Shown: piece by piece, positions 45,450-63,334 of the stretch
How positions within the stretch are numbered: position 1 is the stretch's first letter
Layout of the letters: each line of letters begins with the position of its first letter
Sequence record: SRR20825006_1005
Reading direction: 5' to 3' (one strand)
DNA length: 64,000 bases
Position numbers and translations under genes: made by a program
The notes under the pieces: model-generated
What the model saw: the letters and a program-made list of their open reading frames with translations, nothing else
Told to the model about the DNA's origin: nothing
Databases searched by the model: none

Positions 45450-47474
45450 TCATGCCCCGCGAATGACCGCGTAGATGCTGATCTGCATCCGCGAAAGTTT
45501 GTCGATGAAGTCTTCGACCAAATCAATGGGATCGATGTCCTTCATGTCGGTCGTCTCAATCGCCAAGCAATCAGGTTTGGTTTCGGTTCCTTCAACCGGG
45601 TCCAAACAAATCCACTGATCGTCCACTTTGGCCACAACCCACGCGTGATAAACAAAGCGGTTCCCATCGGGCAAACGTGCTCGTGTTTGAAACGGCAACG
45701 CCAGATCTCGTGTGGGCGAAATGTGGTCGGCAGTTTGGTGACGAATGCCCATTACCATCCGAGACGGGATGCCAGCGGATCGCAATAAAGCCATCAGCAG
45801 AATGGACTGCTCCGTGCTGTCAGCTGTCGACGAGTCCGCAATCTGGCTGGCCGGCCGCATCCCTTGTGAAAGTGGTTGAAAGGACAACAGCGAGTGAACC
45901 GTTCGGTTCATCTCCATCGCACGCTCAGCAGTTGTGAAGTCAGGACTGTTGGCCGTCGCCTTGGCAATCCGCCGAACGGTAGCGGATCGATAGTCGACCA
46001 AGGATGTCGCCGCCAAATCAGCCGGTGAATCTTCTCCTCCGAATTGATCAAAGCGATCGCGAAGCTTTGATTGAGGAACAGGAACGCGGGAAACGATCAG
46101 TTTTTGTTCGACGCCGTCACCGCCGCGTTGTAGATATTGTCGTGGTGCCAACGCAATCCGGTTGTCGTCGTCATCAGCGGGTGCGTCAGACTCTGGCTCG
46201 GTGGTCTGCTCGTCTTCGCTTGGCGTGACCGATTCAGGTGCGGGCGGTTTGGCCCACATGATTTTGTATCCCACTTGTCGCAGATCGCCCGCTAGCAAGC
46301 TGGACTCCGTTTCCAAAGGTTTGCCCTGTACCTGCAAGGCAATCGGATAATCTTGGTTGAGGAACTCTTTTCCCAGCAGTTTGTACTGAGACTCTTTGCA
46401 GCCGTACGAAAATCGTTGTTCGTTCGAGACGTGATAGAGCTGGACCTGGCCCTGATCATCAAACCAATAAACGCTTTCCCGTTGACGTTTGGGATCGAGC
46501 GACAGCAAACAAGATGCTTCCTGGAGAACGACCTCTTGGAACCCTTGCGGAGTCAACACCGAAGGCGAAGCGAGTGAGTTGTGTTGCAGACGAAGCGTTG
46601 CAACTTCGCCCATGATCGGAAGCAACACGTTGGCTTCGCGAACCTCGCCTTCCTTCAGCGGTTTTCGTCGCAATGTTTGGTAAACGTGCAGCGGTCCACC
46701 GAGTGGCGAATTGATTCGCAGTGTCTTCTTCTGCGATGAGACCAAACGGTCATCTACGAACTGCACTTCGCTCGCGGTGATTTCAATGGTCCGGTGCGAT
46801 TCAATTGGGCCTCGCCGGAACGTGCAGTCGACTTTCTTTAGATCGCCGTTGGCATCGTGCCAAAACGTTTGCTGGTTGGATTCGAGGATCTGCAGCATGC
46901 CTCGGTAAGTCAAACCTTGTTCTTCCAGTTCAACTTTGATTTGGTTGTCCACTGTTCGAGTGGATTTGGCATGAATGCCGCCCAAGATGGTTGAACGCAG
47001 GCTGTGGATTTGCCACGTCTCCCACTCGTCGGCGAGTCGATTCGCGATGTCGCCCGGGGAAGTCTGTGAGGCAGGTTTGCCGGAGACCGTTCCCATGGTC
47101 GCCGAAGGTGATTGACCAGGGGTGAGGATTTCTGGCATTCCGGATTGCCGCATTGCGTCGGCGGCAGAATTCGGGCGTGCCGTGTTGCTGGCCTGAGACG
47201 CAAAAGAGGACGAAGCGTCAGAATGCCAAGGGGCCGGTTTTTCAAACGATTCAATGTCGTACCGATCAGGCAGATCGCAACCCAGCGGGCTTGCGATCGC
47301 GGGAACTGCAATCGCGATCAGACAGAGTGTTCTCAGCGACTTTCGAGCCCGGTGCTTCGTGATATCCGATTTCGCGGCATTGGACTCACAGCCGAGGCCC
47401 GATGAATGGCCTTGGTTCGAGAAAATGCGTCGTAGACGGGGCAAAGTCCGTCGGAATGCTGTTCGATCCATCAT
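45450..47474 (-). CDS. Transglutaminase-like domain lipoprotein
   Basis: PLGC lipobox; ADSTEQSILLMALLRSAGIPSR, YHAWV, WICLDP core. Confidence 0.8.
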   Translation of the reverse strand: MMDRTAFRRTLPRLRRIFSNQGHSSGLGCESNAAKSDITKHRARKSLRTLCLIAIAVPAIASPLGCDLPDRYDIESFEKPAPWHSDASSSFASQASNTARPNSAADAMRQSGMPEILTPGQSPSATMGTVSGKPASQTSPGDIANRLADEWETWQIHSLRSTILGGIHAKSTRTVDNQIKVELEEQGLTYRGMLQILESNQQTFWHDANGDLKKVDCTFRRGPIESHRTIEITASEVQFVDDRLVSSQKKTLRINSPLGGPLHVYQTLRRKPLKEGEVREANVLLPIMGEVATLRLQHNSLASPSVLTPQGFQEVVLQEASCLLSLDPKRQRESVYWFDDQGQVQLYHVSNEQRFSYGCKESQYKLLGKEFLNQDYPIALQVQGKPLETESSLLAGDLRQVGYKIMWAKPPAPESVTPSEDEQTTEPESDAPADDDDNRIALAPRQYLQRGGDGVEQKLIVSRVPVPQSKLRDRFDQFGGEDSPADLAATSLVDYRSATVRRIAKATANSPDFTTAERAMEMNRTVHSLLSFQPLSQGMRPASQIADSSTADSTEQSILLMALLRSAGIPSRMVMGIRHQTADHISPTRDLALPFQTRARLPDGNRFVYHAWVVAKVDDQWICLDPVEGTETKPDCLAIETTDMKDIDPIDLVEDFIDKLSRMQISIYAVIRGA

Positions 47475-47837
47475 GACCAGCCGCTTGAATGCGTTTCAAA
47501 GAAGCGTTTTTCTGAAATTTGCGGCGATTGAGCACCGCTGACACCCCAATGTCGACTCCCTGGCTTTTGTGTCAACCGCTTTCGGTGGGTTCTGTTCGTG
47601 TGTTGGGCATTTGGTGGCAGGTTGAGCGGAACGTTTGTGCCGGTTGTAGCGGTGAAAATTTTTGGGAGGCCAGCATAAAACCCATTCAGCGAGTTTTGAG
47701 CGGTTCTGGATGAGTTGTGGAGTCTTCGTCGAGGTGTGACCTAGCTTTGTGTGTTCACCAGTCGCAGCGGTGAACCGGCTCAGGCAATCTTTTCACCCTG
47801 ACGTCGACACTACGAACGCGTCGAAAATTACCAACCA

Positions 47838-48548
47838 ATGGGCTTTCTCAAACGCATCCTTCGTCCGACGACACAGGACGACGCGATTCCGACATCCGCG
47901 CCAGGCAGCTTTGAACGTCTTTCCGACGATGAGTTGCAAGTTCACATGGGGATCAAAACCTATGGGATGTTTGAATTGACTGACGCCATCCGACCTTCCT
48001 ACGACGTGCAGATTTCGCCACGTCAAGGATTTCGATACGACAAATACGTCGACGAATCCAATGGATCCACCACTCCGGTGATCATGGCCGCCGCATCCAA
48101 GCCGATTTTGATGGATGTGTTCTTGGACCTGATTGATCAATTGGGCAGTGTTGTCGATGTTGTCTTGGAAACGAGCCATCACAGTTCTTCACAACACGAA
48201 GATTTGTATCGGGAACACATTGACGTCCCGGTGCTCAAAAGCATCCTGATGGAATTCGAAGACGTGCTGCTCAATGACGGCTGCACCGGCATCGCCATCA
48301 TCAACACGGCCAAGCAACAGGAAGTCCAATTGGACGAACACAAACTGTTGATTGCTTATGGCACGCCGCTGGATGGATTCCGTCAAACGTTGATCAATTC
48401 CGACGTCTACCCGGACGACTCGATCAAGTTTGTTACCGAAGCTGAGCATGTGCACAGCAGCAGCGAACGCTTGTACGACAAGTTCCAACAGTTTAAAACC
48501 CGTTTGGGTGTTGAAGACGAACACGAGCCCGAATGCGGTGCTTGGTGA
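47838..48548 (+). CDS. Hypothetical acidic protein
   Basis: 236 aa ORF with genome-like codon usage; no family recognised. Confidence 0.7.
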   Translation: MGFLKRILRPTTQDDAIPTSAPGSFERLSDDELQVHMGIKTYGMFELTDAIRPSYDVQISPRQGFRYDKYVDESNGSTTPVIMAAASKPILMDVFLDLIDQLGSVVDVVLETSHHSSSQHEDLYREHIDVPVLKSILMEFEDVLLNDGCTGIAIINTAKQQEVQLDEHKLLIAYGTPLDGFRQTLINSDVYPDDSIKFVTEAEHVHSSSERLYDKFQQFKTRLGVEDEHEPECGAW

Positions 48549-48568
48549 TTGACCGGACTCACTGTTTG

Positions 48569-49534
48569 TCAGTGAGTTGTCATCGATCCCACTGCGATCA
48601 CCAGCGTCCCGGCGACTGACTCAGGAATTGCACGGTAATCCGTTTCAATTCCGGATTCGGCCAGCTTTTCGCGAATGCTTTGTGTGAACGCAGGCTGATG
48701 AATCAGTACGCTGCCGGTGCCTGCTAACGAGACCGGTTGGGTAAGCATGCCCAGTCGATTGATCAGCGTCTTGAGCATCTCCGCCAGATCCGTCGATGCC
48801 TGAACAATGATCTGCATCGCAACCGGGTCGCCCGAACCGGCCACATCAAAGACGAGTGGCGCGAGCGAGGCGATCATGATTCGATTGTTTGGATCGGCAT
48901 GCAGAATTGGAATCAATTCATCGGCCGATGGAATGGCGAAGTGCTCAAGCAGTCGACCATGCAATTGAGTGGCTGGCCCACGCCCGTCATCGACGCGAAC
49001 GGCAGCTCGTGTTGCTGCGAGAGCAATCTGATAGCCGCTGCCCTCATCGCCGAGCAAGCTTCCCCAGCCGCCACATCGCGCCATGTTGCCACTTGCGTTC
49101 TGGCCCAGTGCCAGCGAACCAGTTCCCGCGATCAACGCGATTCCGACCCCGTCTGGTGAGGCGGCATACAGCACTGGCAATGCGTCATCGACGACCGTCA
49201 ACTTGCTTGCCAGTTGACATTGTTCGGCCCAAGACCGGATGCGTTGCTGTTCGACATCTCGACCGGCACCCGCGAGAGCCAAACAGGCAGACTCGACGGT
49301 GACTCGAGACCGCTCCGCATCAGTGAAGGCTCGCTCGACCGCCAGATTCAAATTGTCAAACGCAGTCTCGAAGCCAACGCCGCGAACGTTCGACGATCCC
49401 GAATGTCCACGACCAATTGTTTCAATGGCGTTGAAGGGATCGCCGTCGTTCTTGAAGTCGCACCTCGCCAACCAAGCGACGGTTTTGGTGCCGCCCCCGT
49501 CGATCCCCAGGATGAGTCCGTCTGAAGTATTCAT
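48569..49534 (-). CDS. BadF/BadG/BcrA/BcrD-type N-acetylamino-sugar kinase (MurK-like)
   Basis: GIDGGGTKT, LIAGTGS, GGWGSLLGDEGSG; 4 nt overlap with murQ stop. Confidence 0.88.
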   Translation of the reverse strand: MNTSDGLILGIDGGGTKTVAWLARCDFKNDGDPFNAIETIGRGHSGSSNVRGVGFETAFDNLNLAVERAFTDAERSRVTVESACLALAGAGRDVEQQRIRSWAEQCQLASKLTVVDDALPVLYAASPDGVGIALIAGTGSLALGQNASGNMARCGGWGSLLGDEGSGYQIALAATRAAVRVDDGRGPATQLHGRLLEHFAIPSADELIPILHADPNNRIMIASLAPLVFDVAGSGDPVAMQIIVQASTDLAEMLKTLINRLGMLTQPVSLAGTGSVLIHQPAFTQSIREKLAESGIETDYRAIPESVAGTLVIAVGSMTTH

Positions 49535-50439
49535 TCGGACGGCGTCGCGAGCAGGCGACTGAGGTGTCCGTCGACGTCGACCAACATTTGACGGGCGGTC
49601 TGCGGCGAGACTTCTTTTTTATGAACGACGATCGCGGTCTTCACTTCGCCTTCGCATTGCTGCAGCAGTTGTTCAGCTTGATCGCTGGAGATATCGACGA
49701 TCTCCGACAGCATCTGTCGCGATCGGGCGACCAGCTTCTCGTTGGTTGCTCGGACGTCGACCATGCGATTGCCATAGGTCTTTCCAATTCGGATCATGGC
49801 ACCAGTTGTCAACATGTTCAGGACCATCTTGGTCGCTGTTCCAGCTTTCATTCGAGTCGATCCGCTGACGATCTCTGGACCGACAATTGGCGCGATCATG
49901 ATTTGGGACAATGGTCGCAACTGGCAATTTGGGTTGCAGCTCAGGCCGATTGTGAATGCACCGATGGATCGGGCGTATTTCAACCCGCCGATGACGTAGG
50001 GGGTTCTTCCGCTGGTGGCGATCCCGACCAACACATCGTTGCTGGATAAATTGATCTCCGCCAAGTCACGCTCGGCAAATTCAGGGTGATCCTCGGCACC
50101 TTCAATCGCGCGGGTCAGCGCCTCGGGACCGCCGGCGATAACACCCACGACCATTTCGGGTGGTGTGCGAAAGGTGGGTGGGCATTCGCTTGCATCGAGC
50201 ACCCCTAGGCGACCGGACGTGCCGGCTCCCAAGTAGATCAGCCGTCCGTTGGATCGAAATCTGTCCGCGATCACGTCCACCGCCTCAGCGATCATTTCGG
50301 CCTGCGTGTTCACCGCGGCAGCGACCAAAGCGTCCTGTTGATTGATCAGCTGAACGATCTGCAACGCTGACAAAGAATCGATTTGGGCAGAAGCTGGGTT
50401 GCTAGCTTCCGTGGTCAATTGATTCAACTGATTCAGCAT
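49531..50439 (-). CDS. murQ: N-acetylmuramic acid 6-phosphate etherase
   Basis: LTTE..NP, GAGTSGRLGVLDASECPPTF, EGAED, GSTRMKAGTA. Confidence 0.96.
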   Translation of the reverse strand: MLNQLNQLTTEASNPASAQIDSLSALQIVQLINQQDALVAAAVNTQAEMIAEAVDVIADRFRSNGRLIYLGAGTSGRLGVLDASECPPTFRTPPEMVVGVIAGGPEALTRAIEGAEDHPEFAERDLAEINLSSNDVLVGIATSGRTPYVIGGLKYARSIGAFTIGLSCNPNCQLRPLSQIMIAPIVGPEIVSGSTRMKAGTATKMVLNMLTTGAMIRIGKTYGNRMVDVRATNEKLVARSRQMLSEIVDISSDQAEQLLQQCEGEVKTAIVVHKKEVSPQTARQMLVDVDGHLSRLLATPSE

Positions 50440-50574
50440 GGTGAATGGTTTCGTAGGAGTGATTTCCCGGACCGCAACAAACCCGACCCCAACAAAATAC
50501 AGTAAGGTAGCCACGCAGGTGAGACGGGGCGAGTTCACGCCGCCAAATGGACTTCCGCATACGAGATTCAACAC

Positions 50575-52098
50575 TTGGCTATCAGCTTCTTTGACCTTGC
50601 CGTTCTGGTCATCTACATGCTTGCGATGGTTGCCTTTGGCATCTGGGTCGGGCGAGATCAAAAGGACTTGGCAGGTTACTTGCTGGGCGGACGCTCGATG
50701 CCGTGGTGGTCAATCCTGGGGTCGATCGTCGCAACAGAAACTAGCACCGCGACATTCTTGAGCGTGCCCGGAATCGCGTTCGCCGTCGATGGCGACATGC
50801 GTTTTTTGCAATTGGGAATGGGGTTGGTCATCGGCCGTTTGATCGTGGCGATCGTGTTGGTGCCGCTGTTTCGACGTGGCGAGATCTATTCGGCCTATGA
50901 GATTCTGGCGACGCGGTTTGGCGGATCCAGCAAGCGTTTCGCATCGTTGCTGTTTCTGGTCACCCGAAACTTGGGCGATGGATTGCGTCTGTTCCTGGCG
51001 GGCATCGCGCTAGAAAAGGTGCTCAGCGTTGATCTGGTTAGCTGCATCGTGATCTTGGGTGTCTTCACGATTGTCTACACGTTCTTTGGCGGGATCAAAG
51101 CTGTCATCTGGAGCGACTGCATCCAGTTGGTTGTTTACATGGTCGGTGGCGTGTTGTCGTTGATGATTCTCGTCAGATACTTCCCGGGCGGTTGGCAACA
51201 ACTGGTCGAATTTGGTCAGGAGACCGGGCGTTTCCATGTCTTTGATTTCCGCGTTCGAACAACTGAAACGTTCAGTGTGCTGACCGAACCGTTCACGTTC
51301 TGGTCGGGAGTCATCGGCGGAGCGGTGTTGACGCTGGGAACGCACGGGACCGATCAAATGATTGTTCAACGTTACTTGGCCGCTCGCAGCACGATGGATG
51401 CGCAGCGAGCCGTGGTTGCCAGTGGCGTGGTCGTCCTGATCCAGTTCGCTTTGTTCCTGGTGTTGGGTGTTGCGTTGGCATGTTTCTATTCGCAAATCCA
51501 TCCGCGAGCGTTTGAACACAACGACGAAGTTTTCGCGGCGTTCATTGTCGATTACCTGCCCGTTGGTTTGGTTGGCCTCACGCTGGCGGCGGTGTTTGCG
51601 GCAGCCATGTCAACGTTGTCCAGTTCGTTGAATTCGTCGGCCTCGGCAGCCGTCTCGGATTTCTACCAACCTTGGCTGCTCGCTCGCCACAACCGATCGT
51701 CAGACAAAGAAACTGACGAGCAGAGCTTTGATCGCGAAACGTCTGGCAACCTTCTCGGAGTCAGTCGCAAGCTGACCATCGCCTTTGGTTTGATTCAGAT
51801 CGGGATTGGGATCGGTGCGAGCTATCTGTCCAGCAGTGTCATCAGTGATGCACTGGCGATTGCGGGCTTCACGGCGGGGATTTTGTTGGGCGTGTTCCTA
51901 CTTGGGATCTTGACCACTTCTGCTCACCAGCGTGGGGCTCTGATCGGAATGGTCTCGGGCATGGTCGTGCTCACTGCCATCAAGTTTGGAACGGCTGTCG
52001 CGTGGCCATGGTTCGCGATCATCGGGTCGGTCACCACGTTCACGGCAGGCTACATCGCCAGTCGCTTAATCCCTGCCGGGCAGCGAGCCGAGAATTGA
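50575..52098 (+). CDS. Sodium:solute symporter (SSS family)
   Basis: YLLGGRSMPWW, SIVATETS, GGIKAVIWSD, DQMIVQRYLA, AAAMSTLSSSLNS; TTG start. Confidence 0.93.
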   Translation: MAISFFDLAVLVIYMLAMVAFGIWVGRDQKDLAGYLLGGRSMPWWSILGSIVATETSTATFLSVPGIAFAVDGDMRFLQLGMGLVIGRLIVAIVLVPLFRRGEIYSAYEILATRFGGSSKRFASLLFLVTRNLGDGLRLFLAGIALEKVLSVDLVSCIVILGVFTIVYTFFGGIKAVIWSDCIQLVVYMVGGVLSLMILVRYFPGGWQQLVEFGQETGRFHVFDFRVRTTETFSVLTEPFTFWSGVIGGAVLTLGTHGTDQMIVQRYLAARSTMDAQRAVVASGVVVLIQFALFLVLGVALACFYSQIHPRAFEHNDEVFAAFIVDYLPVGLVGLTLAAVFAAAMSTLSSSLNSSASAAVSDFYQPWLLARHNRSSDKETDEQSFDRETSGNLLGVSRKLTIAFGLIQIGIGIGASYLSSSVISDALAIAGFTAGILLGVFLLGILTTSAHQRGALIGMVSGMVVLTAIKFGTAVAWPWFAIIGSVTTFTAGYIASRLIPAGQRAEN

Positions 52099-52139
52099 TA
52101 CCACTTTTTCGAAAAATGACTCTTTGATACCGACACCAC

Positions 52140-53366
52140 ATGTTCTCTCTGAAATCAATCATGCATCATCCGTGTGCTGCAGCTTGTCTGCTTGCGATCA
52201 TGTTTTCCGTCTCCCAATCCAGTGAAGCCAGTGCGCAAGTTCTGGCCGGGATCGATGTTTTGCAGCGAGATGATTTCGCAAGCCTTGCTGGTCAAAAGGT
52301 CGGGCTGATCACGAACCACACGGGCACGAACCTGACCGGGGCCTCGACGGTTCAGTTGCTGCACGATTCAAAGGAGGTGGACCTGGTCGCCTTGTTCAGT
52401 CCCGAACATGGGTTTGTGGGCCAACTGGATCAAGCCAATATCGACGACCAACAGGATGCGTTGACCGGATTGAAGGTTCACAGTCTGTACGGCAAAACGC
52501 GAGTTCCGACAGCGGAGATGCTAGAAGGCATCGACACGCTGGTCTTTGATATTCAGGACATTGGCGTTCGTTTCTACACCTACATCTCGACGATGGGTGG
52601 CGCGATGAAGGCGGCGGCAGAGAATGATGTTCGGTTTGTAGTTTTGGATCGGCCCAATCCAATCAACGGGACGGAGGTGCAAGGTCCCGTCACCGATGAG
52701 GGAAGCGAGTCGTTCATCGCTTACCACCGCATTCCCGTCCGGCATGGGATGACGATTGGTGAGCTGGCGAAAATGTTCCAAGCGGAATGGCAACTCGATC
52801 TGGATTTGCAAGTCATTCCGATGAAGGGTTGGGAAGGCCGTCCGGGGTTCGATCAAACCGGACGGATGTGGATCAATCCATCACCCAATATGCGCACTCT
52901 CAACGCGGCCTACCTTTATCCGGCGATTGGATTGTGGGAGACAACCAATTTGTCCGTTGGCCGGGGAACGGACACACCGTTTGAACACTTCGGTGCTCCC
53001 TGGATCGACGCATTGGAACTGGCAAGTGAACTGAACGCACAAGGATTGAGCGGGGTGCGATTTGTCCCGATCGAGTTCACTCCGAACGCCAGCAAATTTG
53101 CCAATGAAAAGTGTGGCGGAGTGAACGTGATCCTGACTCAGCGGGCTGAGTTCGATCCGTTGCAAACCTCGCTAACCATTGCGGTGACGTTGAGGAAACT
53201 TGCTCCCGATGATTGGAATACGAAGTCACTGAACCGTTTGTTGGTCAGCCAGAAAACAGCGGAAGGAATCCTGGGCGGTCACTCGGTGGAGCAGTTGCAG
53301 GCGGCCTACCAAGAAGAGTTGGAAGAGTTTCAAAATCGCCGACTGAAGTACCTGATGTATCGCTGA
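52140..53366 (+). CDS. namZ: Exo-beta-N-acetylmuramidase (NamZ/DUF1343 family), secreted
   Basis: GLITNHTG, LFSPEHG, FDIQDIGVRFYTY, LDRPNP, RHGMTIGELA, PSPNM, SVGRGT. Confidence 0.92.
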   Translation: MFSLKSIMHHPCAAACLLAIMFSVSQSSEASAQVLAGIDVLQRDDFASLAGQKVGLITNHTGTNLTGASTVQLLHDSKEVDLVALFSPEHGFVGQLDQANIDDQQDALTGLKVHSLYGKTRVPTAEMLEGIDTLVFDIQDIGVRFYTYISTMGGAMKAAAENDVRFVVLDRPNPINGTEVQGPVTDEGSESFIAYHRIPVRHGMTIGELAKMFQAEWQLDLDLQVIPMKGWEGRPGFDQTGRMWINPSPNMRTLNAAYLYPAIGLWETTNLSVGRGTDTPFEHFGAPWIDALELASELNAQGLSGVRFVPIEFTPNASKFANEKCGGVNVILTQRAEFDPLQTSLTIAVTLRKLAPDDWNTKSLNRLLVSQKTAEGILGGHSVEQLQAAYQEELEEFQNRRLKYLMYR

Positions 53367-54889
53367 TGCCTTCCGAATCGGTCCAGACACATATGACCTC
53401 ATCAGATGATTCGAAGCTGCCGTCGAGTTTGCTAGCGAGATTGTTGGCCCCGCGAAACTTGGCGGTGTTTGTCTTTCTCGTCTTGCCGCTATCACTGATT
53501 TTTCTGGTGCTAATTTGGTGGTTCGCTCGCCAGAACATCGCGGCTCAGGAACTGGCCGACCGCAAAAATGATTTGCTGGCCAGCGGTTTGCCAATCGATG
53601 CGGAGTCGTTGCTGGACTACCGCAGGGAACGGATTGATTCATCGCGTAGCCGGGAATGGCAACTCATCCTCGATGAGATCGAATCGGACGCGTTCCAGGA
53701 GTCCGGGGAAGACGTTCCGATCATTGGCCTGGCTTGCGAAGTAGAACCGGAGGAATACGTCTACGGGCAACCCTATTCGAACCATCTGGTCGCAAGGAAC
53801 TACCTGAGTGAATGGTCGGGGCTGCTGCAGCGAATTCATTTGATCACTGAACGCAGTCGTGGCGTGTGGACGCCGATGACAACCTATGATCTTTTTCCCC
53901 GTATTGGACCGACGAGAGATGTCTCTCGATTGCTGCGTTTGGAGTTTGATGACGCACTTCGGCGTGATGACTTCGATCATGCGAACCACTGTGTGTTGGC
54001 CCTGATCGGAAATTCACGGGCGTTGGAAGAGGAGCCGATGGCGGTTTCGCAGTTGGTCAGTGTGGCAATACTCGAGTTCGCTCTTGATGCCATCAAAACC
54101 GCATTGCAAATCGATTGCTTTGACGATGAACAGTGGCGAGCGGTGTTGGAGCAACTCGAGGGACTTGAAGAGATTGAACCTCGCTACCGACGATTTCTGA
54201 TTGGCGAACGAGCTTGGGTGCTACCGTTGTTTCAGGATCCGACCTCAATGGAAGAACTGGGGGGAGAAGCCATTGAATATCAATTACCGGGCGGGCACTC
54301 CATCGATGCCTTGGAGACACTGGCTATGTACGACCGGTTGGAGCTTGTTCCCACCGATGATTTGACCACCTTTTTCGAGGAGATCGAAAGTCTGGAAACT
54401 TCGGTGCAAGCTTCTTTTCAATCCAGGAATTGGTTGCGGAAACTGGACACTCAAGTCACCGAGATGGCAATGCCGAGTTTGGTTTCGATGAATCAAGCCT
54501 TTGTCCGATCCGCCATGCATGTGCGTTTGGCCAAAACAGCCATCTTGGCTCGATTGTTTCAGCACCGAGAAGGGCGTTGGCCGAGCACCATCCAAGAGAT
54601 CCACGACGCTGCCCCAGGTTTGCTGAACTCCGGCGATGAGAACGGAAATCTCACGATCGGAAGTCTCGCACCCATGGGAGATCGACCCTTCGGTCTGAAG
54701 GTCGATCAAGACGAATTGGTGCTCTGGGGATTCGAACCCGACTCGGTAACTGCGGCGACTCCTGTCGATCCTCCCACCGAACAAGACTTCATCGATGCAG
54801 ACGCGGAGTATGCGCCGATGCTGGCAGACTCCTACCTGCAGCGTTGGCTTTGGAATCTTCCAACAGACGGTCTCGCGAAATCAGATTGA
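53366..54889 (+). CDS. Hypothetical single-TM anchored helical protein
   Basis: TGATG coupling with namZ stop; one N-terminal TM; acidic helical body. Confidence 0.7.
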   Translation: MPSESVQTHMTSSDDSKLPSSLLARLLAPRNLAVFVFLVLPLSLIFLVLIWWFARQNIAAQELADRKNDLLASGLPIDAESLLDYRRERIDSSRSREWQLILDEIESDAFQESGEDVPIIGLACEVEPEEYVYGQPYSNHLVARNYLSEWSGLLQRIHLITERSRGVWTPMTTYDLFPRIGPTRDVSRLLRLEFDDALRRDDFDHANHCVLALIGNSRALEEEPMAVSQLVSVAILEFALDAIKTALQIDCFDDEQWRAVLEQLEGLEEIEPRYRRFLIGERAWVLPLFQDPTSMEELGGEAIEYQLPGGHSIDALETLAMYDRLELVPTDDLTTFFEEIESLETSVQASFQSRNWLRKLDTQVTEMAMPSLVSMNQAFVRSAMHVRLAKTAILARLFQHREGRWPSTIQEIHDAAPGLLNSGDENGNLTIGSLAPMGDRPFGLKVDQDELVLWGFEPDSVTAATPVDPPTEQDFIDADAEYAPMLADSYLQRWLWNLPTDGLAKSD

Positions 54890-56658: not shown

Positions 56659-59331
56659 TTAAAGCATTTCGACTCGGCGAAACGCCACGTCCGCGATGAA
56701 CAGAACCAAGCCAGCCATGAGTAGCCATGGCCAGATCGGGACAGGGTCACGTGCTGTGCGATCATCGTCTTCCGTGATGGAACTTGCCAGGGCGTCATAG
56801 CGTCCACCGCTTACGGACGCGATTTGACGAAGCAATTCGTCGCCACGTGGCAGCAAACGCAATTCGTCGGGGTAGCCAACCGCGATTCCTCGAGAGCTTC
56901 GTTGGCTGGTTCCGTCCATCCGGTTGGTGGCGATGTCAAAGTGGTATGCACCGCGACGAAGCGTTTCCACCGAGGCCTCGTAGCGACCCGGCGCGGTTTG
57001 CCGCATGGCAATTTTTTCATTCTTCAATCGAGGATCGATTACCGTCAATCGAGTTTCGGCCTCGTCGATGAATCGACCGTTGTCGTCGACCGCGTCCATG
57101 ACCACACGAGTTTGATTGCCGTTTCGTTCGACTTCCACAAACACGCCTCGATTGTCGTCCTTGCGCATCGCATGGCGGATGATTTGGGCCCAAAAGGTTC
57201 CAAAGTCTGGCCAGGTCATCCATTCGCCCGCCCAGCGATTTTTTGCGTCGCTGGTAAAAGCAACCGACATCCCCAAACCATATCGCCACCATACCAACAG
57301 CGGGTCGCCCGACTCGCTGGCCAGAATGAACTCGGCCGTGGGTTTGGGACGCGTCACGACGTAGCCGAGCAGCAGTGGCGACAGGTCCAGTTCGATCCCA
57401 TCGAGCACCGATGTGGGACGCACCAACTGTGGGACAAAAGGCAGTTCGTTGATCGCGGATTTGCTGGCTTCGACGGTTTCCTTCGCGAAGACTTGGGGAA
57501 CCGATTGAGGATCATCGCAAAAGTAGTAGCGACCTCCACCAATCTGAGCGAGTTCCTCCAGCAGGTCTTCGCTCGAACCCTGACCGAGTGCAACGGTAGA
57601 GAGCGTGATTCGCGATGCGGACATGTCGCCGGCAACACCTTGGAAGTCGCCCGGTGAAGAAACACCGTCCGTCATCAGGATCACGTGTTTCAGTTTGGCT
57701 GTTGCGCCAAGCAACGCTTCGTAGGCGTCGGCCATTGCGGGGTACATGTTTGTTCCACCGGACGCTTCGATTGTTGAAATGGCATCCGAGATCGCACCGC
57801 GATCGGAAGTCGAACGAAGCTCGGACACGGTGTAGGAGTCTCCATCAAAGGCGATCACTCCAATGGCGTCTTTGGGGCCAAGCAGTTCGACGGCGGCTTG
57901 GGCAGCATCTTTGGCAAGTTCAATTTTTTGGCCGCCCATCGAGCCGCTCTTGTCGATCACCAGCATCATTGCCAACGAAGGCTTTTCGCGTTCTTTTTCA
58001 AAGTTGCTGCGAACGGGCAAGATTTCTTCAATCTGAGTTCGGTAATAACCGCCCAGGCCAAAGGCTTGGTCGCCACCGAGCATGATCAGCCCGCCGCCTA
58101 AGTCTTGGACGTAGATCCCGATCAGATCCATCTGCCGCATCGACATCGAAGTTGCCGGAACGTTGGAAAGAATCAAGCATTCATAACTTTGCATTTCAGA
58201 CAAGTCGCTGGGGATGCCCTCCGGAGGACGAACGTCAACGTCGATGGATTGTTCATCCAATGCCCAACGCAAGGAGTCCGTTTCGTCGGGGTCGCTGTCG
58301 ATCAGCAGCACGCGAGGTTTGCCGCTGGCGTACACGATCGCCTGGGCTTCGTTGTTATCAAGCAGTGTGTCATCGCAATCTCGCAATCGCGCGGCAAAGG
58401 TTTCTTGTCGTTGCCCCAGCAAAGTCTGCTGAAACCGGAAGCGGTTTTCTCCCTTTTTGATCTTCACCGCCGGTGCGCCGACGTCGCCAATTTGAATGTC
58501 CCCGCGATACAGATCGACATGTCCTTCAGTGTCACGATTGCTGCTGACAACAACTTCGACGAAGAATGGTTCGCCCTGACGCACCTGCGTGGGAGCCTCC
58601 AACGCGGCCATCTGCACTTCCGGTTCGCTTCGTGTCGGAAGTGGCACTGTCCACACGGGAACACCAGCGTCTGTCGCAGCGGCAATTCCATCGCCATTTG
58701 TTTGATTGCCGTCGCTCATCAATACGATTCGTGGCACGCGCGACGGAGGAATCGAAGCCACGGCGGTTTGAATGGCGGCGGCCAAGTCCGTGCCCATTCG
58801 TTTCGCTTCATCGGCATCCAAGTCGGTCGGTGATGGGGTTGGCGCCGGCACTTCGTCTTCCCCGGGGTCAACTCCATCGAACGCAGAAACGTCCGCCGGT
58901 GTTTCTTCCGCAACTTCGACTGATGCTGGTTCGCTGTCTGTTTCCGCAGGAGGCTCTTGAAACGCCGTCCAGTTGGATTGCAGTTGCCGTGGAGTGCTAT
59001 CAAACGGCAAAAAACGCACCTCGGCATCGTCTTCTTTCGCCTGCTCGATGGCATCCTTTAAGTATTCGTCCGCGGTTTCGCGTGCGGCGTCGTCGATGCT
59101 CTCGCTTTGGTCGATTGCGAACACAATCATTTTTTGCGAGGTCGAACGAAGCACCACCGGTCCACAAACCACCATGATCAGCAGCGTTAGCACAATGCCT
59201 CGAACCAGCAGCGATACGAGTCGTTGACGCGGTGGGAAGTCGCTCAGCGTTCGAAGGTGAAACACCACCAGCCATAAGACGGCTGGGACCCAAAGCCAGG
59301 CCCATTGCGGTTGAGTCCATTGCAACATCAT
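56659..59331 (-). CDS. vWA-domain membrane protein with GATase-like middle domain
   Basis: MIDAS motifs DQSES..SDG and DKSGS..TDG; VQDLGGGLIMLGG; N- and C-terminal TM. Confidence 0.85.
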   Translation of the reverse strand: MMLQWTQPQWAWLWVPAVLWLVVFHLRTLSDFPPRQRLVSLLVRGIVLTLLIMVVCGPVVLRSTSQKMIVFAIDQSESIDDAARETADEYLKDAIEQAKEDDAEVRFLPFDSTPRQLQSNWTAFQEPPAETDSEPASVEVAEETPADVSAFDGVDPGEDEVPAPTPSPTDLDADEAKRMGTDLAAAIQTAVASIPPSRVPRIVLMSDGNQTNGDGIAAATDAGVPVWTVPLPTRSEPEVQMAALEAPTQVRQGEPFFVEVVVSSNRDTEGHVDLYRGDIQIGDVGAPAVKIKKGENRFRFQQTLLGQRQETFAARLRDCDDTLLDNNEAQAIVYASGKPRVLLIDSDPDETDSLRWALDEQSIDVDVRPPEGIPSDLSEMQSYECLILSNVPATSMSMRQMDLIGIYVQDLGGGLIMLGGDQAFGLGGYYRTQIEEILPVRSNFEKEREKPSLAMMLVIDKSGSMGGQKIELAKDAAQAAVELLGPKDAIGVIAFDGDSYTVSELRSTSDRGAISDAISTIEASGGTNMYPAMADAYEALLGATAKLKHVILMTDGVSSPGDFQGVAGDMSASRITLSTVALGQGSSEDLLEELAQIGGGRYYFCDDPQSVPQVFAKETVEASKSAINELPFVPQLVRPTSVLDGIELDLSPLLLGYVVTRPKPTAEFILASESGDPLLVWWRYGLGMSVAFTSDAKNRWAGEWMTWPDFGTFWAQIIRHAMRKDDNRGVFVEVERNGNQTRVVMDAVDDNGRFIDEAETRLTVIDPRLKNEKIAMRQTAPGRYEASVETLRRGAYHFDIATNRMDGTSQRSSRGIAVGYPDELRLLPRGDELLRQIASVSGGRYDALASSITEDDDRTARDPVPIWPWLLMAGLVLFIADVAFRRVEML

Positions 59332-61250
59332 GCCACCACCCTTCGATGGAACAATGCCCACTCACCGACCACCAATGCAATTGCCAACATGACCAAGTAG
59401 AACCACGCCGGAGCTCCGCCTCGCGAGACCAAGCTGGTTGGCTCCTTTGGCTGCTGGGCAACTCGTAGGTCACTTTCCTCGGCACTGCACAGATTGACCG
59501 CCAGCAACTCACCAGGAACATCTTCCGCTAACTTCCATTCTTCGGGAGTCTTGACGGGTTGCTGTTCGGGCTGTGGTGCTGAGTCGGTTTGGGGCAACGA
59601 CTCAGGTGAGAACAGGCCGTACACGCCGGCTTTCCCGATTGGGCTGATGGTGGCGTGATCACGCGTAACGGAAATGTTTCGGACATTTCCATCCGGCGAC
59701 ATCAACACAGCCGAGGCAACGTCGAAATCCCATGGCACCGTAGTCGCCAATCCCGTGTTCAAGGCGGGGTTCATGTCGCCTGTTTGCCGGAAGAACCAAT
59801 TCATGGCATTGGTCATCATGACAGGGAATGCGATCCGAAGCGGTAGATCGCTGTCATCCAGGTTGGCTGACAAAATCAAAATTCTGCCGGATTCACGTTC
59901 GACGGAAACCAAAACCCGCGAGGTGTCAGCTGTTTCAAGCAATGTGGTCGCCTGTCCCAGCGATTCGTCGACTTCGATATCACGCCCGCCGGCGAGCATC
60001 ACGTTTTGCAATTGAACGTGCCGCAACAAAGATGACTCCTTGTCCTGTTTTGCCACGATGGGGGTATCAATTTCGCTGCCAAGTTTCCAGGTTCCCGGTG
60101 GACCGTCATCCTGGGCGATGAACAGAGCGGGGCCGGAAGGAAGTTCCGTGGGAACCGCTCCGCTGTAGATCGTCAAACCATGCTCTGCGGTTTGCTCGGC
60201 GTCGTTGCCCACCGTCAACTTGATCAACGGGATCGATTCTAAAACGGTGCGAAGATAAAACGACACGTCATCTGCCCCAGTCACCAATGTCACTGGAACG
60301 AGCGGGCGTGCCGGAACGACTGCTCGGGCCACGTTGTCGACAGAGAGCCCATCGGTCGCGTCCAACGAAGCGGTCAAAACCCCGCCCTCGCGAGACGTTC
60401 CATCAATCGTTGTTTGCCAAACGCCATCGGCGTCCAGCTTGATTGGAACAACGTCGACCAATTCATCGCCAAGCGTAAGCTTTAGCCGTGTACTGGCTGG
60501 TTCGTCGGAGAAGTTGCGGACTTCGACCAACAATGCGTAACCAACGGGATCAACGCTCGAACGTCGAACTTGGAACGTGGTGATTGCCAGGTTGGTTTGA
60601 GAAGTGCCAACGGTCTCCCATGAAAGATCTTCGGCTGATTCGATGTCGTTTTGAACGCCAAGCGTTGTGTCGGTGATGACGACAATACGACGCCGGTCAT
60701 TTTTGTCTGCTAACCGTCTGGCCGCTTCGATGGCAGCGCCGATCTGCGTTGGTCCATCGGTTGGCTGGATCGAATGAATGGCTTCCTCGATCGCCGGTGC
60801 GAAATCAGACATGCCAACAACGACGCGTACCGTGGTGCCCGCGGTGACCAATGCCATTTGGTCGCCTTGGCGAAGACCGCGAGCGAGCGAAGCGGCGCGG
60901 TCAACGGCTAGTTGCAATCTTGTTTGGCCTGTTTCCGGTTCAACCGCTTGCATACTGGCCGAGTTGTCCACGACTAAAATCACTTCTTGACCAGAATCCG
61001 CCTGCCAACGCCAAAGTGGATCTGCCAGTGCGAACACCAATAGCGAAACAAATACAAGCTGCAGCAGAAGTGACAGCCAGCGACGGAGATTCTGCCAGAG
61101 GGATCGCTGGCGTTTCTCTTCGAAGATCTGTTCCCAAAACAGGAGCGTTGCGACAGGTCGGCGTCGCAAACGCGTTTTCAGGATGTAGAGAACGATGATT
61201 GGAAGTGCAATCCAAAGCCACACCAATCGTTCGGGAGACGCCAGCGACAT
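59328..61250 (-). CDS. BatA-like N-terminal double-TM vWA protein
   Basis: LPIIVLYILK.R, LADP, VDNSASM, ITD; C-terminal TM ending EW..F.RR. Confidence 0.85.
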   Translation of the reverse strand: MSLASPERLVWLWIALPIIVLYILKTRLRRRPVATLLFWEQIFEEKRQRSLWQNLRRWLSLLLQLVFVSLLVFALADPLWRWQADSGQEVILVVDNSASMQAVEPETGQTRLQLAVDRAASLARGLRQGDQMALVTAGTTVRVVVGMSDFAPAIEEAIHSIQPTDGPTQIGAAIEAARRLADKNDRRRIVVITDTTLGVQNDIESAEDLSWETVGTSQTNLAITTFQVRRSSVDPVGYALLVEVRNFSDEPASTRLKLTLGDELVDVVPIKLDADGVWQTTIDGTSREGGVLTASLDATDGLSVDNVARAVVPARPLVPVTLVTGADDVSFYLRTVLESIPLIKLTVGNDAEQTAEHGLTIYSGAVPTELPSGPALFIAQDDGPPGTWKLGSEIDTPIVAKQDKESSLLRHVQLQNVMLAGGRDIEVDESLGQATTLLETADTSRVLVSVERESGRILILSANLDDSDLPLRIAFPVMMTNAMNWFFRQTGDMNPALNTGLATTVPWDFDVASAVLMSPDGNVRNISVTRDHATISPIGKAGVYGLFSPESLPQTDSAPQPEQQPVKTPEEWKLAEDVPGELLAVNLCSAEESDLRVAQQPKEPTSLVSRGGAPAWFYLVMLAIALVVGEWALFHRRVVA

Positions 61251-61253
61251 GTG

Positions 61254-62156
61254 TTATCCCACCGCCGCAGTACGCATCATACGAAGCAATACAGCGTCGA
61301 AGGGAACCTCCGTCGTCGCTCGTGTATGACTCAGGCCATGGTTGCGACAATAGGTTTCGACGTCATTCAAAAATGCTTGGAAAAGCTTTTTGTACTGCCG
61401 TAGCTTGCGTTCGGTTACCGTCACCTTTTTTTGCAGACCGCTCTCACAGTCCACCAATTCCATGTCTCCCAGAAAACTGGGTGACGCTTCACTGGGCGTG
61501 TGGATCTGAATCACATGCGGTTCAAAGCGGGCGTAACGGAGTCGATCAATGCCGTCGCGGAAACCCTTTTGGTCATACAGGTCGCTGACAACAATCGCCA
61601 GTCCCGTTCGTGGTGCTCGGTCCACAAAATCACCAACAACCGTTTGCAAGTCCGTGCGTTCGCCGCCGCACTCAAGTTGCTCAAGAAAACGCAGCAAACT
61701 GAGGACTTGGTTTTTGCCTCGGATCAATGGCATGGTCGCACGTACACGGTCGTCGTAAGCCAAGATCGAAACGCGATCGAGATCTGCCAGAGCGATATAG
61801 GACAACGCCGCGACGATCTGCTGGGCCAGTAGGAATTTTGTTCCTGTGGCCTCACCATGACGGTTATCTGAATCAGCCACGTTCATGCTGGCGGATGTAT
61901 CGAGCAGCATATACACGTGAAGGTCTTCCTCTTCCTGGAATCGTTTTAGCAGCAAATCGCCGTGCCTCGCGTAAACGTTCCAGTCCAAGTAACGCAGGTC
62001 ATCTCCGCTGATGTATTCGCGGTGGTCGGCAAATTCGATTCCGCCGCCGGTTTGCATCGTTCGTCGCTGGGCCAATAGTTGCCCCTTGAACATCCGCTTT
62101 GATAAGAGCGAAAGGTATTCCAGTCGCTTCAGAAAGTCCGAGTCAAAGACGGTCAT
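61254..62156 (-). CDS. DUF58 family protein
   Basis: GIEFADHREY.SGDDLRYLDW, LDTSASM, VVSD. Confidence 0.93.
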   Translation of the reverse strand: MTVFDSDFLKRLEYLSLLSKRMFKGQLLAQRRTMQTGGGIEFADHREYISGDDLRYLDWNVYARHGDLLLKRFQEEEDLHVYMLLDTSASMNVADSDNRHGEATGTKFLLAQQIVAALSYIALADLDRVSILAYDDRVRATMPLIRGKNQVLSLLRFLEQLECGGERTDLQTVVGDFVDRAPRTGLAIVVSDLYDQKGFRDGIDRLRYARFEPHVIQIHTPSEASPSFLGDMELVDCESGLQKKVTVTERKLRQYKKLFQAFLNDVETYCRNHGLSHTRATTEVPFDAVLLRMMRTAAVG

Positions 62157-63166
62157 GCCACAACCACTTCGCTGTGAACGTTTTCGATCAGGTCGTCAAC
62201 GATCGCATCGATGGTGATTCCATCCGCTTGGCCCTCAAAGTTCAGCATGACCCGGTGCCGAAGCGTTGCATGGGCCATTTCGCGAATGTCTTCTTTGGCA
62301 ACATGAAAGCGACCGTCCAAAACGGCCCGGATTTTTGCACACAAAATCAATGCTTGTGCTCCCCTTGGACTGCTGCCATACCGGACAAATTTTTGCACCA
62401 TCGGGGTCGCCGCTTCGTGAGATGGATGGGTGCCCATGATCATCAAAATCGCATAACGCCGAACTTCATCGGCAATCGGGATTTGCCTCGACAGGCGGCG
62501 AAGCTCGATCACGCGATCGGAAGACATGATTTTTTGAGGTGGCGGAATCTCTCCTGCTGTGGTGCGGTCCATGATCGTTTCCATTTCCTCGGTCGTCGGA
62601 AATGGTACGACCAATTTCATGAGGAAACGATCCAGTTGGGCTTCGGGCAGAGGGTAGGTTCCTTCCATTTCCAGCGGGTTTTGCGTGGCCAACACAAAAA
62701 ATAGCCCGTCAAGTTGATGTGAAGTTCCTGCAACCGTGACACTGTGTTCCTGCATTGCTTCTAGCAAGGCGGATTGTGTCTTTGGCGTCGCGCGGTTGAT
62801 TTCATCAGCCAGCACCACATTGGCAAAGACCGGGCCGCGTTGAAATTGAAATTCTTTATGGCCGTTTTGTGTTTCGACCAAAATGTTGGTGCCAATTAGG
62901 TCGGCCGGCATGAGGTCGGGAGTGAACTGGATACGACCAAAAGAGGCATCTAAAACGTCTGAAAGCGTTCGGACCAAGAGGGTTTTTCCTAAGCCGGGCA
63001 CACCTTCGAGCAAGACATGGCCGCCGGCAATCAAAGATGTCAGCACCCCGTCAACGATTGGTTGTTGACCGACGATGCGTTTGGATACTTCTTCGCGAAG
63101 TCGACCAAAATCCCCACGGAATTGTTCGAGTCGGTCACGCAACTCATTGTCAATCGATTCACTCAT
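62153..63166 (-). CDS. moxR: MoxR family AAA+ ATPase
   Basis: GVPGLGKT, RIQFTPDLMPAD, ADEINRA, ATQNP.E.EGTYPLPEAQLDRF. Confidence 0.96.
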   Translation of the reverse strand: MSESIDNELRDRLEQFRGDFGRLREEVSKRIVGQQPIVDGVLTSLIAGGHVLLEGVPGLGKTLLVRTLSDVLDASFGRIQFTPDLMPADLIGTNILVETQNGHKEFQFQRGPVFANVVLADEINRATPKTQSALLEAMQEHSVTVAGTSHQLDGLFFVLATQNPLEMEGTYPLPEAQLDRFLMKLVVPFPTTEEMETIMDRTTAGEIPPPQKIMSSDRVIELRRLSRQIPIADEVRRYAILMIMGTHPSHEAATPMVQKFVRYGSSPRGAQALILCAKIRAVLDGRFHVAKEDIREMAHATLRHRVMLNFEGQADGITIDAIVDDLIENVHSEVVVA

Positions 63167-63334
63167 GTTGTTCCTAATGGTTCGCCATCGCAGCAATCGT
63201 TTGGAAGGTCAGAAGCAGAATACCAGAAAATGTGAGGTGGGGGGTGTCAAGAATTGCATCGCGCGGCGCTGAGCTCTACAGTGAGGATTCATTTGATTGC
63301 TTGGTTCGACTTCCGCTTTGACGTCGAGGTTGCC

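Follow-up and report, generated by a model that had tools for sequence, protein, structure and literature searches.

A candidate non-PTS N-acetylmuramic acid salvage module with an SSS-family symporter in Rhodopirellula

The PTS is absent from many environmental phyla, and uptake of N-acetylmuramic acid (MurNAc) has, to our knowledge, been shown only for PTS MurP, AmpG (for disaccharides and muropeptides) and Tannerella MurT. We asked whether a Rhodopirellula locus, with four genes at the positions named by an earlier note (kinase, murQ, SSS symporter and namZ), encodes another route for salvage of this sugar. The locus lies in a 64,000-nucleotide stretch of sequence record SRR20825006_1005, the whole of which is referred to here as the window. 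Judging from sequence comparison, we consider it likely that the locus is a non-PTS salvage module for MurNAc, in which the SSS protein imports MurNAc together with Na+. Its features are as follows:

48569–49534, minus strand: BadF/BcrAD-family (ASKHA) sugar kinase, MurK-like (321 aa; PF01869, E 9.5e-41)
49531–50439, minus strand: murQ, MurNAc-6-phosphate etherase (302 aa, ATG at 50439; TIGR00274, PRK12570)
50440–50574, no strand: divergent spacer (135 nt), with a tandem 15-nt direct repeat at 50467–50496
50575–52098, plus strand: SSS-family symporter, candidate Na+:MurNAc importer (507 aa, TTG start; PF00474, TIGR00813)
52140–53366, plus strand: namZ, GH171 exo-beta-N-acetylmuramidase (408 aa; PF07075 and PF20732)
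53366–54889, plus strand: orf507, membrane-anchored protein (507 aa; stop/start overlap of 1 nt with namZ)

The coordinates match the earlier description of a murQ-kinase pair divergent from SSS-namZ across 135 nt, the spacer being exactly that long. The kinase start and murQ stop overlap by 4 nt (49531–49534), and 41 nt separate the SSS stop from the namZ start. The locus is syntenic in the nearest genome compared (G001), with 97% nucleotide identity overall and 95–98% identity between the four proteins and their counterparts; whole-genome statements below are taken from this proxy (99% complete, 97% identical) rather than from the source genome itself. Divergent murQ and SSS genes with a spacer of 65–270 nt were found at 13 Planctomycetota loci, and this recurrence, together with the synteny in G001, argues that the arrangement did not arise by chance.

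The etherase is assigned at family level, passing the equivalog cut-off of TIGR00274 (393.2 bits vs 302, full-length score) and scoring 431.4 bits against PRK12570 (cut-off 255). The mechanically called open reading frame spans 49531–50661; the family match begins only at residue 76–82 and an ATG lies at 50439, so we placed the gene at 49531–50439. The PDB etherases 4s12, 4lzj and 1nri match MurQ at E 1e-86 to 1e-89, the best being 4s12 ('N-acetylmuramic acid 6-phosphate etherase', E 8.9e-89), and G001 holds a single copy over cut-off, at this locus.

The kinase carries the PF01869 family domain (140.5 bits vs a cut-off of 31.5) and is the only match over that cut-off in G001, where it lies at this locus. 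Its best solved relative is 8zo3 (E 1.6e-31), deposited under the molecule name MurNAc/GlcNAc kinase, which we take to be Clostridium acetobutylicum MurK; the ASKHA phosphate and adenosine motifs (DGGGT, GTGS and GDEGSG) align with those of 8zo3, as well as 2e2n and 2ch5. The protein fails the equivalog for the GlcNAc kinase NagK_SO3507 (NF046058, 95.5 bits vs a cut-off of 370), and is predicted to be a MurNAc 6-kinase, perhaps acting on GlcNAc too. In the Tannerella forsythia kinase TfMurK, room for the lactyl ether is made by S133-P134-L135 and T94. The window kinase has G-G-W in place of S133-P134-L135, the same as human NagK and the dual-specificity 8zo3; this fits a kinase with or without MurNAc activity, and for 8zo3-type kinases no determinant is known that separates MurNAc from GlcNAc specificity. 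A G-S-L-L stretch of the window kinase was considered as the counterpart of the TfMurK S-P-L motif and rejected, given that the published mapping equates NagK G145 with MurK P134 and so puts the motif at G-G-W.

Both domains of the exo-muramidase family were detected in NamZ (PF07075, 282 bits, E 2.2e-84; PF20732, 163 bits, E 8.1e-48), and an apparent export signal was identified by eye at its N-terminus. The family's conserved Glu, which tips strand 2, is E89 of the PEHG motif here; it lines up with the PEHG glutamate of 4k05, and we infer that it corresponds to Glu92 of BsNamZ. G001 has one NamZ match, at this locus.

Based on these assignments, NamZ would be exported and, from its family membership, would remove the MurNAc residue at the non-reducing terminus of peptidoglycan strands that lack peptides. 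The freed sugar acid would be brought in by the SSS protein on the Na+ gradient, as gene neighbourhoods, fusions and site conservation suggest. The MurK-like kinase, whose translation is coupled to that of murQ, would then form MurNAc-6-phosphate, a substrate predicted for a kinase whose family is established, and MurQ, with its equivalog-level score, would remove D-lactate to yield GlcNAc-6-phosphate. This product could feed NagA-dependent catabolism or wall resynthesis, NagA being present in G001 away from the locus. Exposing MurNAc would fall to two helpers, an amidase resembling AmiE and a hexosaminidase that removes GlcNAc; their genes lie apart from the locus in Rhodopirellula but are linked to it, or fused, in relatives. 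In G001, a PF00144 orthologue (52% identity, E 3.7e-112) lies at 0.83 Mb and no GH3 (NagZ) was found, which leaves the single, unlinked GH20 ORF as the candidate for removing GlcNAc. The pathway had been called complete: NamZ, the SSS protein, the kinase and MurQ are indeed all here, but the stem-peptide amidase, NagA and the GlcNAc-removing enzyme are elsewhere in G001. No PTS_EIIC was found in G001. MurNAc is present in Rhodopirellula baltica and the planctomycete wall was accepted only in 2015 (PMC4432640). Imported MurNAc may serve recycling of the cell's own wall or scavenging, and both fit these data.

Within this chain, the SSS protein as importer is the least certain link. It scores 152 bits against PF00474 (E 2.5e-44) and 226 bits against TIGR00813 (cut-off 184), whereas the substrate-specific NCBIfam equivalogs all fall far below their cut-offs (PutP 92/515, PanF 66/328, ActP 23/750 and MctC 45/670 bits), and a protein atlas search returned generic SSS clusters only. 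The closest solved structure, aligned from end to end, is 5nv9, the Proteus mirabilis Na+:sialic acid symporter SiaT (E 2.9e-48), which likewise transports an N-acetylated sugar acid. By reference to the published SiaT sites (PMC5931594), the Na2 site is conserved (A56/L59/A339/S342/S343 in SiaT; A53/T56/A343/S346/T347 here), as are the Na3 site (D182/S345/S346; D181/S349/S350) and the two carboxylate-binding TM1 residues (S60/T63; S57/T60). Coupling to two Na+, as in SiaT, is probable. The symporter is nevertheless no orthologue of SiaT, and there are no sialic-acid genes nearby. The SiaT substrate site is retained only in part: Arg135 is replaced by Gly134, Gln82 by Met82 and Thr58 by Glu, with Arg residues 3–4 positions either side of the Gly aligned to Arg135. 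The invariant Glu in the TM1 substrate region (E55) does not seem obviously suited to an anionic sugar.

We assessed how consistently genes for MurNAc metabolism accompany this transporter, a neighbourhood survey having been suggested in the earlier note. Among Planctomycetota, 15 of the 17 loci with the most similar SSS proteins (41%–98% identity) had a murQ, kinase or namZ gene within ±1.5 kb, compared with 0 of 13 loci of SSS paralogues at ≤39% identity. In all eight 18-kb Planctomycetota loci, murQ lay ≤2.5 kb from the SSS gene; namZ was present in seven, and the kinase, a PF00144 gene and a second tandem namZ were each present in five. For other phyla, 80 loci were picked on SSS similarity alone, and 57 had at least one of murQ, kinase and namZ near the SSS gene. 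The kinase was the most frequent of these partners (52 loci, in 38 of which it was less than 600 nt from the SSS gene), followed by namZ (36) and murQ (just 13); a PF00144-like gene was found in 40. The 23 loci with no partner genes in their flanks included all Bacteroidota, Balneolota and most Ignavibacteriota rows. In a tree of 110 SSS rows (the searched loci together with the window) and an outgroup, a 99-row clade (SH-like support 99) contained all 72 linked rows, and the 11 non-outgroup rows outside it were all unlinked.

The SSS domain was joined to NamZ and/or PF00144 in six of the nine long representatives scanned; the forms that occur naturally include SSS-NamZ and SSS-PF00144(amidase-fold)-NamZ. 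In one genome (G034), the gene order was kinase, a GH3+PF00144 fusion, SSS+NamZ in a single frame and an Amidase_3 protein. Such fusions suggest coupling between hydrolase and transporter and may merit structural study. Taken with the Na+ sites and the conservation of neighbourhoods across phyla, they lend good comparative support to the earlier proposal that the SSS protein would drive MurNAc import with Na+.

The alternative that survives best, although we regard it as unlikely, is that the SSS protein imports a MurNAc disaccharide (GlcNAc-MurNAc or MurNAc-GlcNAc) or anhydro-MurNAc, with NamZ acting as an exo-disaccharidase like TfNamZ1 and splitting taking place in the cytoplasm. TfNamZ1 yields GlcNAc-MurNAc, and whether a NamZ releases MurNAc or this disaccharide cannot, according to the authors who described these enzymes, be predicted from primary structure. 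The window NamZ is far nearer to 4k05 (E 9.5e-81), which is Bacteroides fragilis BfNamZ1 and groups with TfNamZ1, than to 4jja (BfNamZ2, E 4.1e-50); however, BsNamZ releases the monosaccharide despite being nearer to TfNamZ1 (46.8% identity) than to TfNamZ2. The lack of a GH3 NagZ in G001, which leaves external exposure of terminal MurNAc hanging on the one GH20 ORF, and the two divergent tandem namZ genes in five of eight relatives, a pattern to be expected where enzymes releasing monosaccharides and disaccharides occur together, also favor a disaccharide. Against it, the cluster has no linked gene for a cytoplasmic glycosidase, AmpG-type MFS permeases are the known route for disaccharides and muropeptides, and a MurK-type kinase had no activity on disaccharides (PMC4432640). 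For anhydro-MurNAc, the absence of AnmK from G001 argues against the proposal.

Slightly less likely still is that the SSS protein carries another solute, such as GlcNAc, the stem peptide or its amino acids, or the D-lactate released by MurQ, and is merely co-regulated with MurNAc genes. SSS members do transport monocarboxylates, amino acids and vitamins (the solved relative 7sl9, E 3.3e-35, is a monocarboxylate transporter), but the models for PutP, PanF, ActP and MctC are the ones that fell far below cut-off. The pairing of SSS and kinase genes, commoner than that of SSS and murQ in the 80 loci, would equally fit a GlcNAc permease with a GlcNAc kinase, and the closest characterized relative of the kinase phosphorylates GlcNAc too. 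However, the in-frame fusions join the SSS domain to NamZ and an AmiE-like domain, both of which represent MurNAc-freeing enzymes, and the presence of namZ in nearly half of the 80 loci and of murQ in every wide Planctomycetota locus likewise points to MurNAc. D-lactate is formed intracellularly and would have no need of an importer coupled to Na+. That the cluster is a decaying Rhodopirellula remnant of little function, having lost the AmiE-like gene and second namZ of its relatives and gained the Rhodopirellula-only orf507 in their place, is very improbable, as the four genes are intact with full-length scores, their proteins and the spacer are closely or fully conserved in G001, and the PF00144 orthologue is kept elsewhere in that genome.

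MurNAc import by the SSS protein thus remains our preferred reading, and the closest published parallel is the MurNAc scavenging operon namZ1-murT-murK-murQ of Tannerella forsythia (Tanf_08370-08385). Like the window, it combines a NamZ exo-muramidase and a MurQ etherase with an inner-membrane transporter outside the PTS and a MurNAc kinase that uses ATP; the transporter and kinase are required together, in an organism without PTS transporters. The contrast with MurT drawn in the earlier note is weaker than implied, given that the operon includes namZ1, murK and murQ and that MurT has been described as a sodium symporter superfamily member, although the same paper also terms it an MFS protein (PMC5790795). 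The theme of MurNAc salvage is accordingly less new than that note suggested. MurT's published description suggests a possible likeness to the window SSS, and the two systems differ in several respects. The Tannerella genes form a single operon, whereas those in the window are divergent, lack ampG and belong to a host that builds its own wall. In type, the window kinase goes with 8zo3, and its sole Bacteroidota PDB match at E ≤0.001 is 1zxo (E 6e-4), the closest structural homologue of TfMurK.

The operon of Bacillus subtilis (murQ-murR-murP-amiE-nagZ-namZ), in which NagZ, AmiE and NamZ act exo-lytically in that order before uptake and MurQ, also shares MurQ and NamZ with the window, and relatives of the window cluster carry PF00144 (AmiE-fold) and GH3 genes as well. 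However, the PTS transporter MurP both imports and phosphorylates MurNAc in B. subtilis, as opposed to the SSS protein and separate kinase proposed here, and the AmiE-like and hexosaminidase genes, part of that operon, are unlinked in Rhodopirellula.

In Bacteroidota, no window-type SSS gene was found within ±1.5 kb of 30 NamZ loci, and no namZ, SSS or kinase gene within ±7 kb of 20 murQ loci; housekeeping genes surrounded four murQ loci in Bacteroidota/Balneolaceae MAGs. PF00474 proteins encoded beside namZ in Bacteroidota shared only 22% (G338) and 24% (Flavobacterium) of their residues with the window SSS, and the Flavobacterium-type SSS gene was near murQ in only three of the 43 genomes having it. 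No Tannerella locus occurred among the 80 SSS-similar contig loci, and named protein matches were all from Planctomycetota or Flavobacterium.

A broader reading, which we advance tentatively and place a little short of probable, is that the window SSS belongs to an unrecognized Na+:MurNAc importer clade spanning several phyla (Planctomycetota, Acidobacteriota, Gemmatimonadota and others), with an origin separate from that of the MurT-type and PUL-type symporters of Bacteroidota. The clade would be a general MurNAc route of PTS-lacking bacteria, fused in some lineages to exo-muramidase or amidase so as to couple hydrolysis and uptake at the membrane, and the invariant TM1 Glu (A-T-E) would mark the MurNAc site. 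The same A-T-E motif was also seen in one NamZ-adjacent SSS of Bacteroidota. A 2021 review of prokaryotic SSS transporters contains no mention of MurNAc, muramic, MurT or Tannerella, and among the papers listed by a literature search on MurNAc and solute symporters none has a title on this topic. A search on MurT as a Tannerella symporter led to a Brachyspira genome paper and to a paper matching only through an author's name among its references, and one on planctomycetes and MurQ gave, for one paper, a match confined to its reference list. If the clade does carry MurNAc, the missing importer would be named for much of the microbiota of soil and sea, MurNAc would be a substrate class new relative to that review, and planctomycetes would gain a concrete route for wall turnover or scavenging.

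The 135-nt spacer, identical in sequence in G001, presumably holds both promoters and is probably a control region common to the two divergent operons. It contains no inverted repeat, and no motif common to other genera was seen in the divergent spacers of the Planctomycetota murQ–SSS loci compared. A sigma-70 consensus scan gave no site in the spacer, and the sigma-70/terminator scan was at chance level overall (3 promoter-like sites vs 3.6 expected). No MurR/RpiR regulator adjoins the window genes.

Downstream, the start of orf507 and the stop of namZ have one base in common (53366), and orf507 possibly belongs to the operon. Its product has no Pfam or PDB match at E ≤1 and a single hydrophobic helix at about residues 33–51. 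The gene occupies the place of the second namZ or PF00144 gene in relatives, and among its seven homologues, all of those with a source name are from Rhodopirellula.

All four genes that the earlier note had placed at 48569-53366 as two divergent pairs were present and intact, and the spacer between the pairs measured exactly 135 nt, as it had stated:

48569-49534, minus strand: kinase, 321 aa, BadF/BcrAD family (PF01869, E 9.5e-41)
49531-50439, minus strand: murQ, with its ATG at 50439 (TIGR00274, 393 bits, cut-off 302)
50467-50496, middle of the 135-nt spacer: tandem direct repeats (2 x 15 nt, 87% alike)
50575-52098, plus strand: solute:sodium symporter (SSS) gene, 507 aa (PF00474 and TIGR00813 both over cut-off)
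52140-53366, plus strand: namZ, 408 aa, both GH171 domains

The murQ product passed the equivalog threshold set for a MurNAc-6-phosphate etherase and matched solved etherases at E values of 1e-86 to 1e-89; its stop codon and the kinase start share a 4-nt overlap, and namZ begins 41 nt past the SSS stop. In NamZ the PEHG-motif Glu is conserved, and the N-terminus, judged by eye, resembles a signal peptide. Scores of the window SSS against substrate-specific NCBIfam models all fell far under their cut-offs. The spacer repeats, which could form a putative operator, are identical in G001 (the nearest genome compared), and none were seen in the spacers of other genera.

We consider it fairly probable that the window SSS imports MurNAc, and rather more probable that its substrate is at least some peptidoglycan sugar containing MurNAc, an interpretation supported by strong comparative evidence. 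Among 301 Planctomycetota genomes, 122 had an SSS match at E<=1e-40, and the best 30 loci were extracted. In these, murQ, kinase or namZ lay within +-1.5 kb in 15 of the 17 closest loci, and in none of the 13 more distant SSS paralogues. When eight Planctomycetota loci were re-extracted at 18 kb, murQ was found in all eight, namZ in seven and the kinase in five, along with a PF00144 gene (beta-lactamase-fold, AmiE-like; 5/8), a second tandem namZ (5/8) and GH3 (2/8). Members of the tandem namZ pairs (L182, L184, L186, L187 and L189) were ~55% and ~38% identical to window NamZ, recalling the functional split between NamZ1 and NamZ2 of Tannerella; only one namZ is kept in Rhodopirellula (G001).

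The pattern extended across phyla. One genome per species was scanned with an 11-sequence alignment of diverse SSS relatives. The 80 best loci, ranked on similarity to the SSS and nothing else, belonged mainly to Acidobacteriota and Gemmatimonadota; Ignavibacteriota, Bacteroidota, Balneolota and others contributed some. In 57 of these loci, flanks of <=7 kb held one or more of the genes for kinase, MurQ and NamZ, and in the other 23 none of the three was present. The kinase was the most frequent partner (52/80, 38 of them <=600 nt from the SSS), followed by a PF00144-like gene (40/80), namZ (36/80) and murQ (13/80); kinase, murQ and namZ occurred together in 7/80. A FastTree phylogeny was built from 112 rows: the window, an outgroup of two Flavobacterium ORFs, and 109 of 113 loci, those retained by a 330-residue HSP filter. 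Linkage was assessed within +-1.5 kb for part of the rows and within +-7 kb for the rest. One 99-row clade (SH-like support 99) took in all 72 rows counted as linked among the searched loci and the window, and the 11 Planctomycetota paralogues outside it were all unlinked. The linkage label requires 15 changes along this tree; shuffled labels averaged 31.7, with 0 of 500 shuffles as low, a measure that relatedness alone inflates.

The closest solved structure to the window SSS was 5nv9 (E 2.9e-48, aligned over residues 4-501), the sialic-acid symporter SiaT of Proteus mirabilis, for which residue roles follow PMC5931594.

Site residues of SiaT and their window SSS counterparts, paired by counting along the printed alignment
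Na2 ligands: SiaT A56, L59, A339, S342, S343; window A53, T56, A343, S346, T347
Na3 ligands: SiaT D182, S345, S346; window D181, S349, S350
Carboxylate-binding TM1: SiaT S60, T63; window S57, T60
Other substrate residues: SiaT R135, Q82, T58; window G134, M82, E55

Judged from these sites, Na+ coupling of the window SSS is well founded, with probably two Na+ ions, and a sugar-acid substrate is plausible. E55, S57 and T60 are invariant across the 11 aligned sequences, and the position equivalent to R135 is flanked by two conserved arginines. Identification of the window SSS as a SiaT was rejected on the replacements in the last row.

The partner enzymes were compared with characterised proteins. 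In Tannerella MurK, according to PMC10465942, S133-P134-L135 make space for the lactyl group, and the authors equate P134 with G145 of NagK. The window kinase has G-G-W at this position, as do human NagK and 8zo3, a dual-specificity MurNAc/GlcNAc kinase that is its best solved relative. The nearest solved relative of window NamZ was 4k05 (BfNamZ1). A preprint (bioRxiv 2021.12.02.470905) gives GlcNAc-MurNAc as the product of TfNamZ1 and MurNAc as that of TfNamZ2 and BsNamZ, and its authors state that mono- and disaccharide release are not distinguishable from NamZ sequence.

All whole-genome statements derive from G001 (7.1 Mb, one contig, 99% complete), which matched window 47500-54000 at 97% identity with gene order kept and an identical spacer; the window SSS is also 94% identical to an NCBI protein common to Rhodopirellula species. 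MurQ, NamZ and the PF01869 kinase each occurred once over cut-off in G001, solely at the cluster locus. Searches of G001 found no PTS EIIC, and therefore no MurP-type route, and neither AnmK nor GH3 was found. Outside the cluster were NagA, one GH20 ORF and, at 0.83 Mb, a PF00144 orthologue (52% identity, E 3.7e-112) of a cluster-linked amidase-fold gene from a same-family relative. From this inventory, the Rhodopirellula module is slimmed and partly dispersed. Anhydro-MurNAc is the usual own-wall turnover product of lytic transglycosylases; the absence of AnmK argues that it is not the main input, and is compatible with both recycling and scavenging.

Fusion proteins also joined the SSS to peptidoglycan enzymes. 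Long proteins, of 840 aa or more, numbered at least 11 among the 150 best SSS representatives, and nine of these were domain-scanned (P0253 and P0263 were left out). In six of the nine the SSS was joined to NamZ and/or PF00144, in the orders SSS-NamZ, NamZ-SSS, SSS-PF00144 and SSS-PF00144-NamZ, and one further representative was an SSS with an N-terminal extension of no assigned domain. Because a hydrophobic, signal-peptide-like segment separates the SSS from the enzyme part in these fusions, the enzyme part would be predicted to lie outside the membrane. In the planctomycete genome G034 (L180, C1:70000-86000), a BadF kinase, a GH3+PF00144 fusion, an SSS+NamZ single frame and an Amidase_3/Golvesin_C/Germane protein follow in order, an arrangement that brings together, by fusion or adjacency, almost all of the exo-lytic peptidoglycan enzymes. 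In B. subtilis, the enzymes that break down peptidoglycan starting at its non-reducing ends are exactly the trio NagZ, AmiE and NamZ (PMC8054146). The scan also returned P0240 and P0178, one fusing an SSS to a Kelch domain like that of NanM, of the N-acetylneuraminate epimerase family, and the other an SSS with an HlyD-type domain.

In Tannerella forsythia, the cluster Tanf_08345-08385 holds ampG, namZ1, murT, murK and murQ, and MurT and MurK together rescued an E. coli murP mutant; a secondary transporter with kinase and MurQ beside NamZ is therefore an already published concept. MurT itself was compared by description only, and NamZ-adjacent PF00474 proteins of Bacteroidota served as its proxies. 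Among 201 Bacteroidota genomes, NamZ was present in 195 and MurQ in 146. Two Flavobacterium genomes (G452 and G356; L156 and L157) carry a cluster of namZ, murQ, an SSS and an ORF of 999 aa that is PF00144-like in part, with two large ORFs (1098 and 577 aa) upstream of namZ, which looks like a peptidoglycan-utilisation locus; its SSS belongs to a different clade and is 24% identical to that of the window. In another Bacteroidota genome (G338; L181, C7 6941-9796), a PF00474 SSS directly 3' of namZ is 22% identical to the window SSS and shares with it a TM1 A-T-E motif that SiaT and the Flavobacterium SSS lack. Window-clade SSS proteins occur in some Bacteroidota MAGs, never adjoining MurNAc genes in the loci examined. 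The window cluster probably represents one version of the non-PTS route already known for MurNAc, using a distinct multi-phylum SSS clade and a Clostridium-type kinase, in a phylum for which no such route was previously described. The founding NamZ paper makes no mention of planctomycetes, a 2015 paper on the planctomycete wall mentions neither recycling nor MurQ, and a 2021 SSS review mentions neither MurNAc nor MurT.

Three further genes adjoin the module:

45450-47474, minus strand: protein of 674 aa, transglutaminase-like core at its C-terminal end, just past the kinase
47838-48548, plus strand: 236-aa ORF without family, just past the kinase
53366-54889, plus strand: orf507, 1-base overlap with the namZ stop

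The orf507 product has a single, N-terminal hydrophobic helix and no relative in Pfam or PDB searches; seven homologues were found, the source-named ones all from Rhodopirellula, and this genus-specific gene occupies the site of the PF00144 gene or second namZ in relatives. The transglutaminase-like gene and the 236-aa ORF are conserved in G001, with no tie to MurNAc genes seen. The flanking genes look unrelated to the MurNAc module, including a Bat-type cluster (56659-63196, minus strand) that encodes a MoxR AAA+ ATPase and DUF58, BatA/VWA and 900-aa VWA/GATase1-like proteins. PQQ-propeller proteins also flank the cluster.
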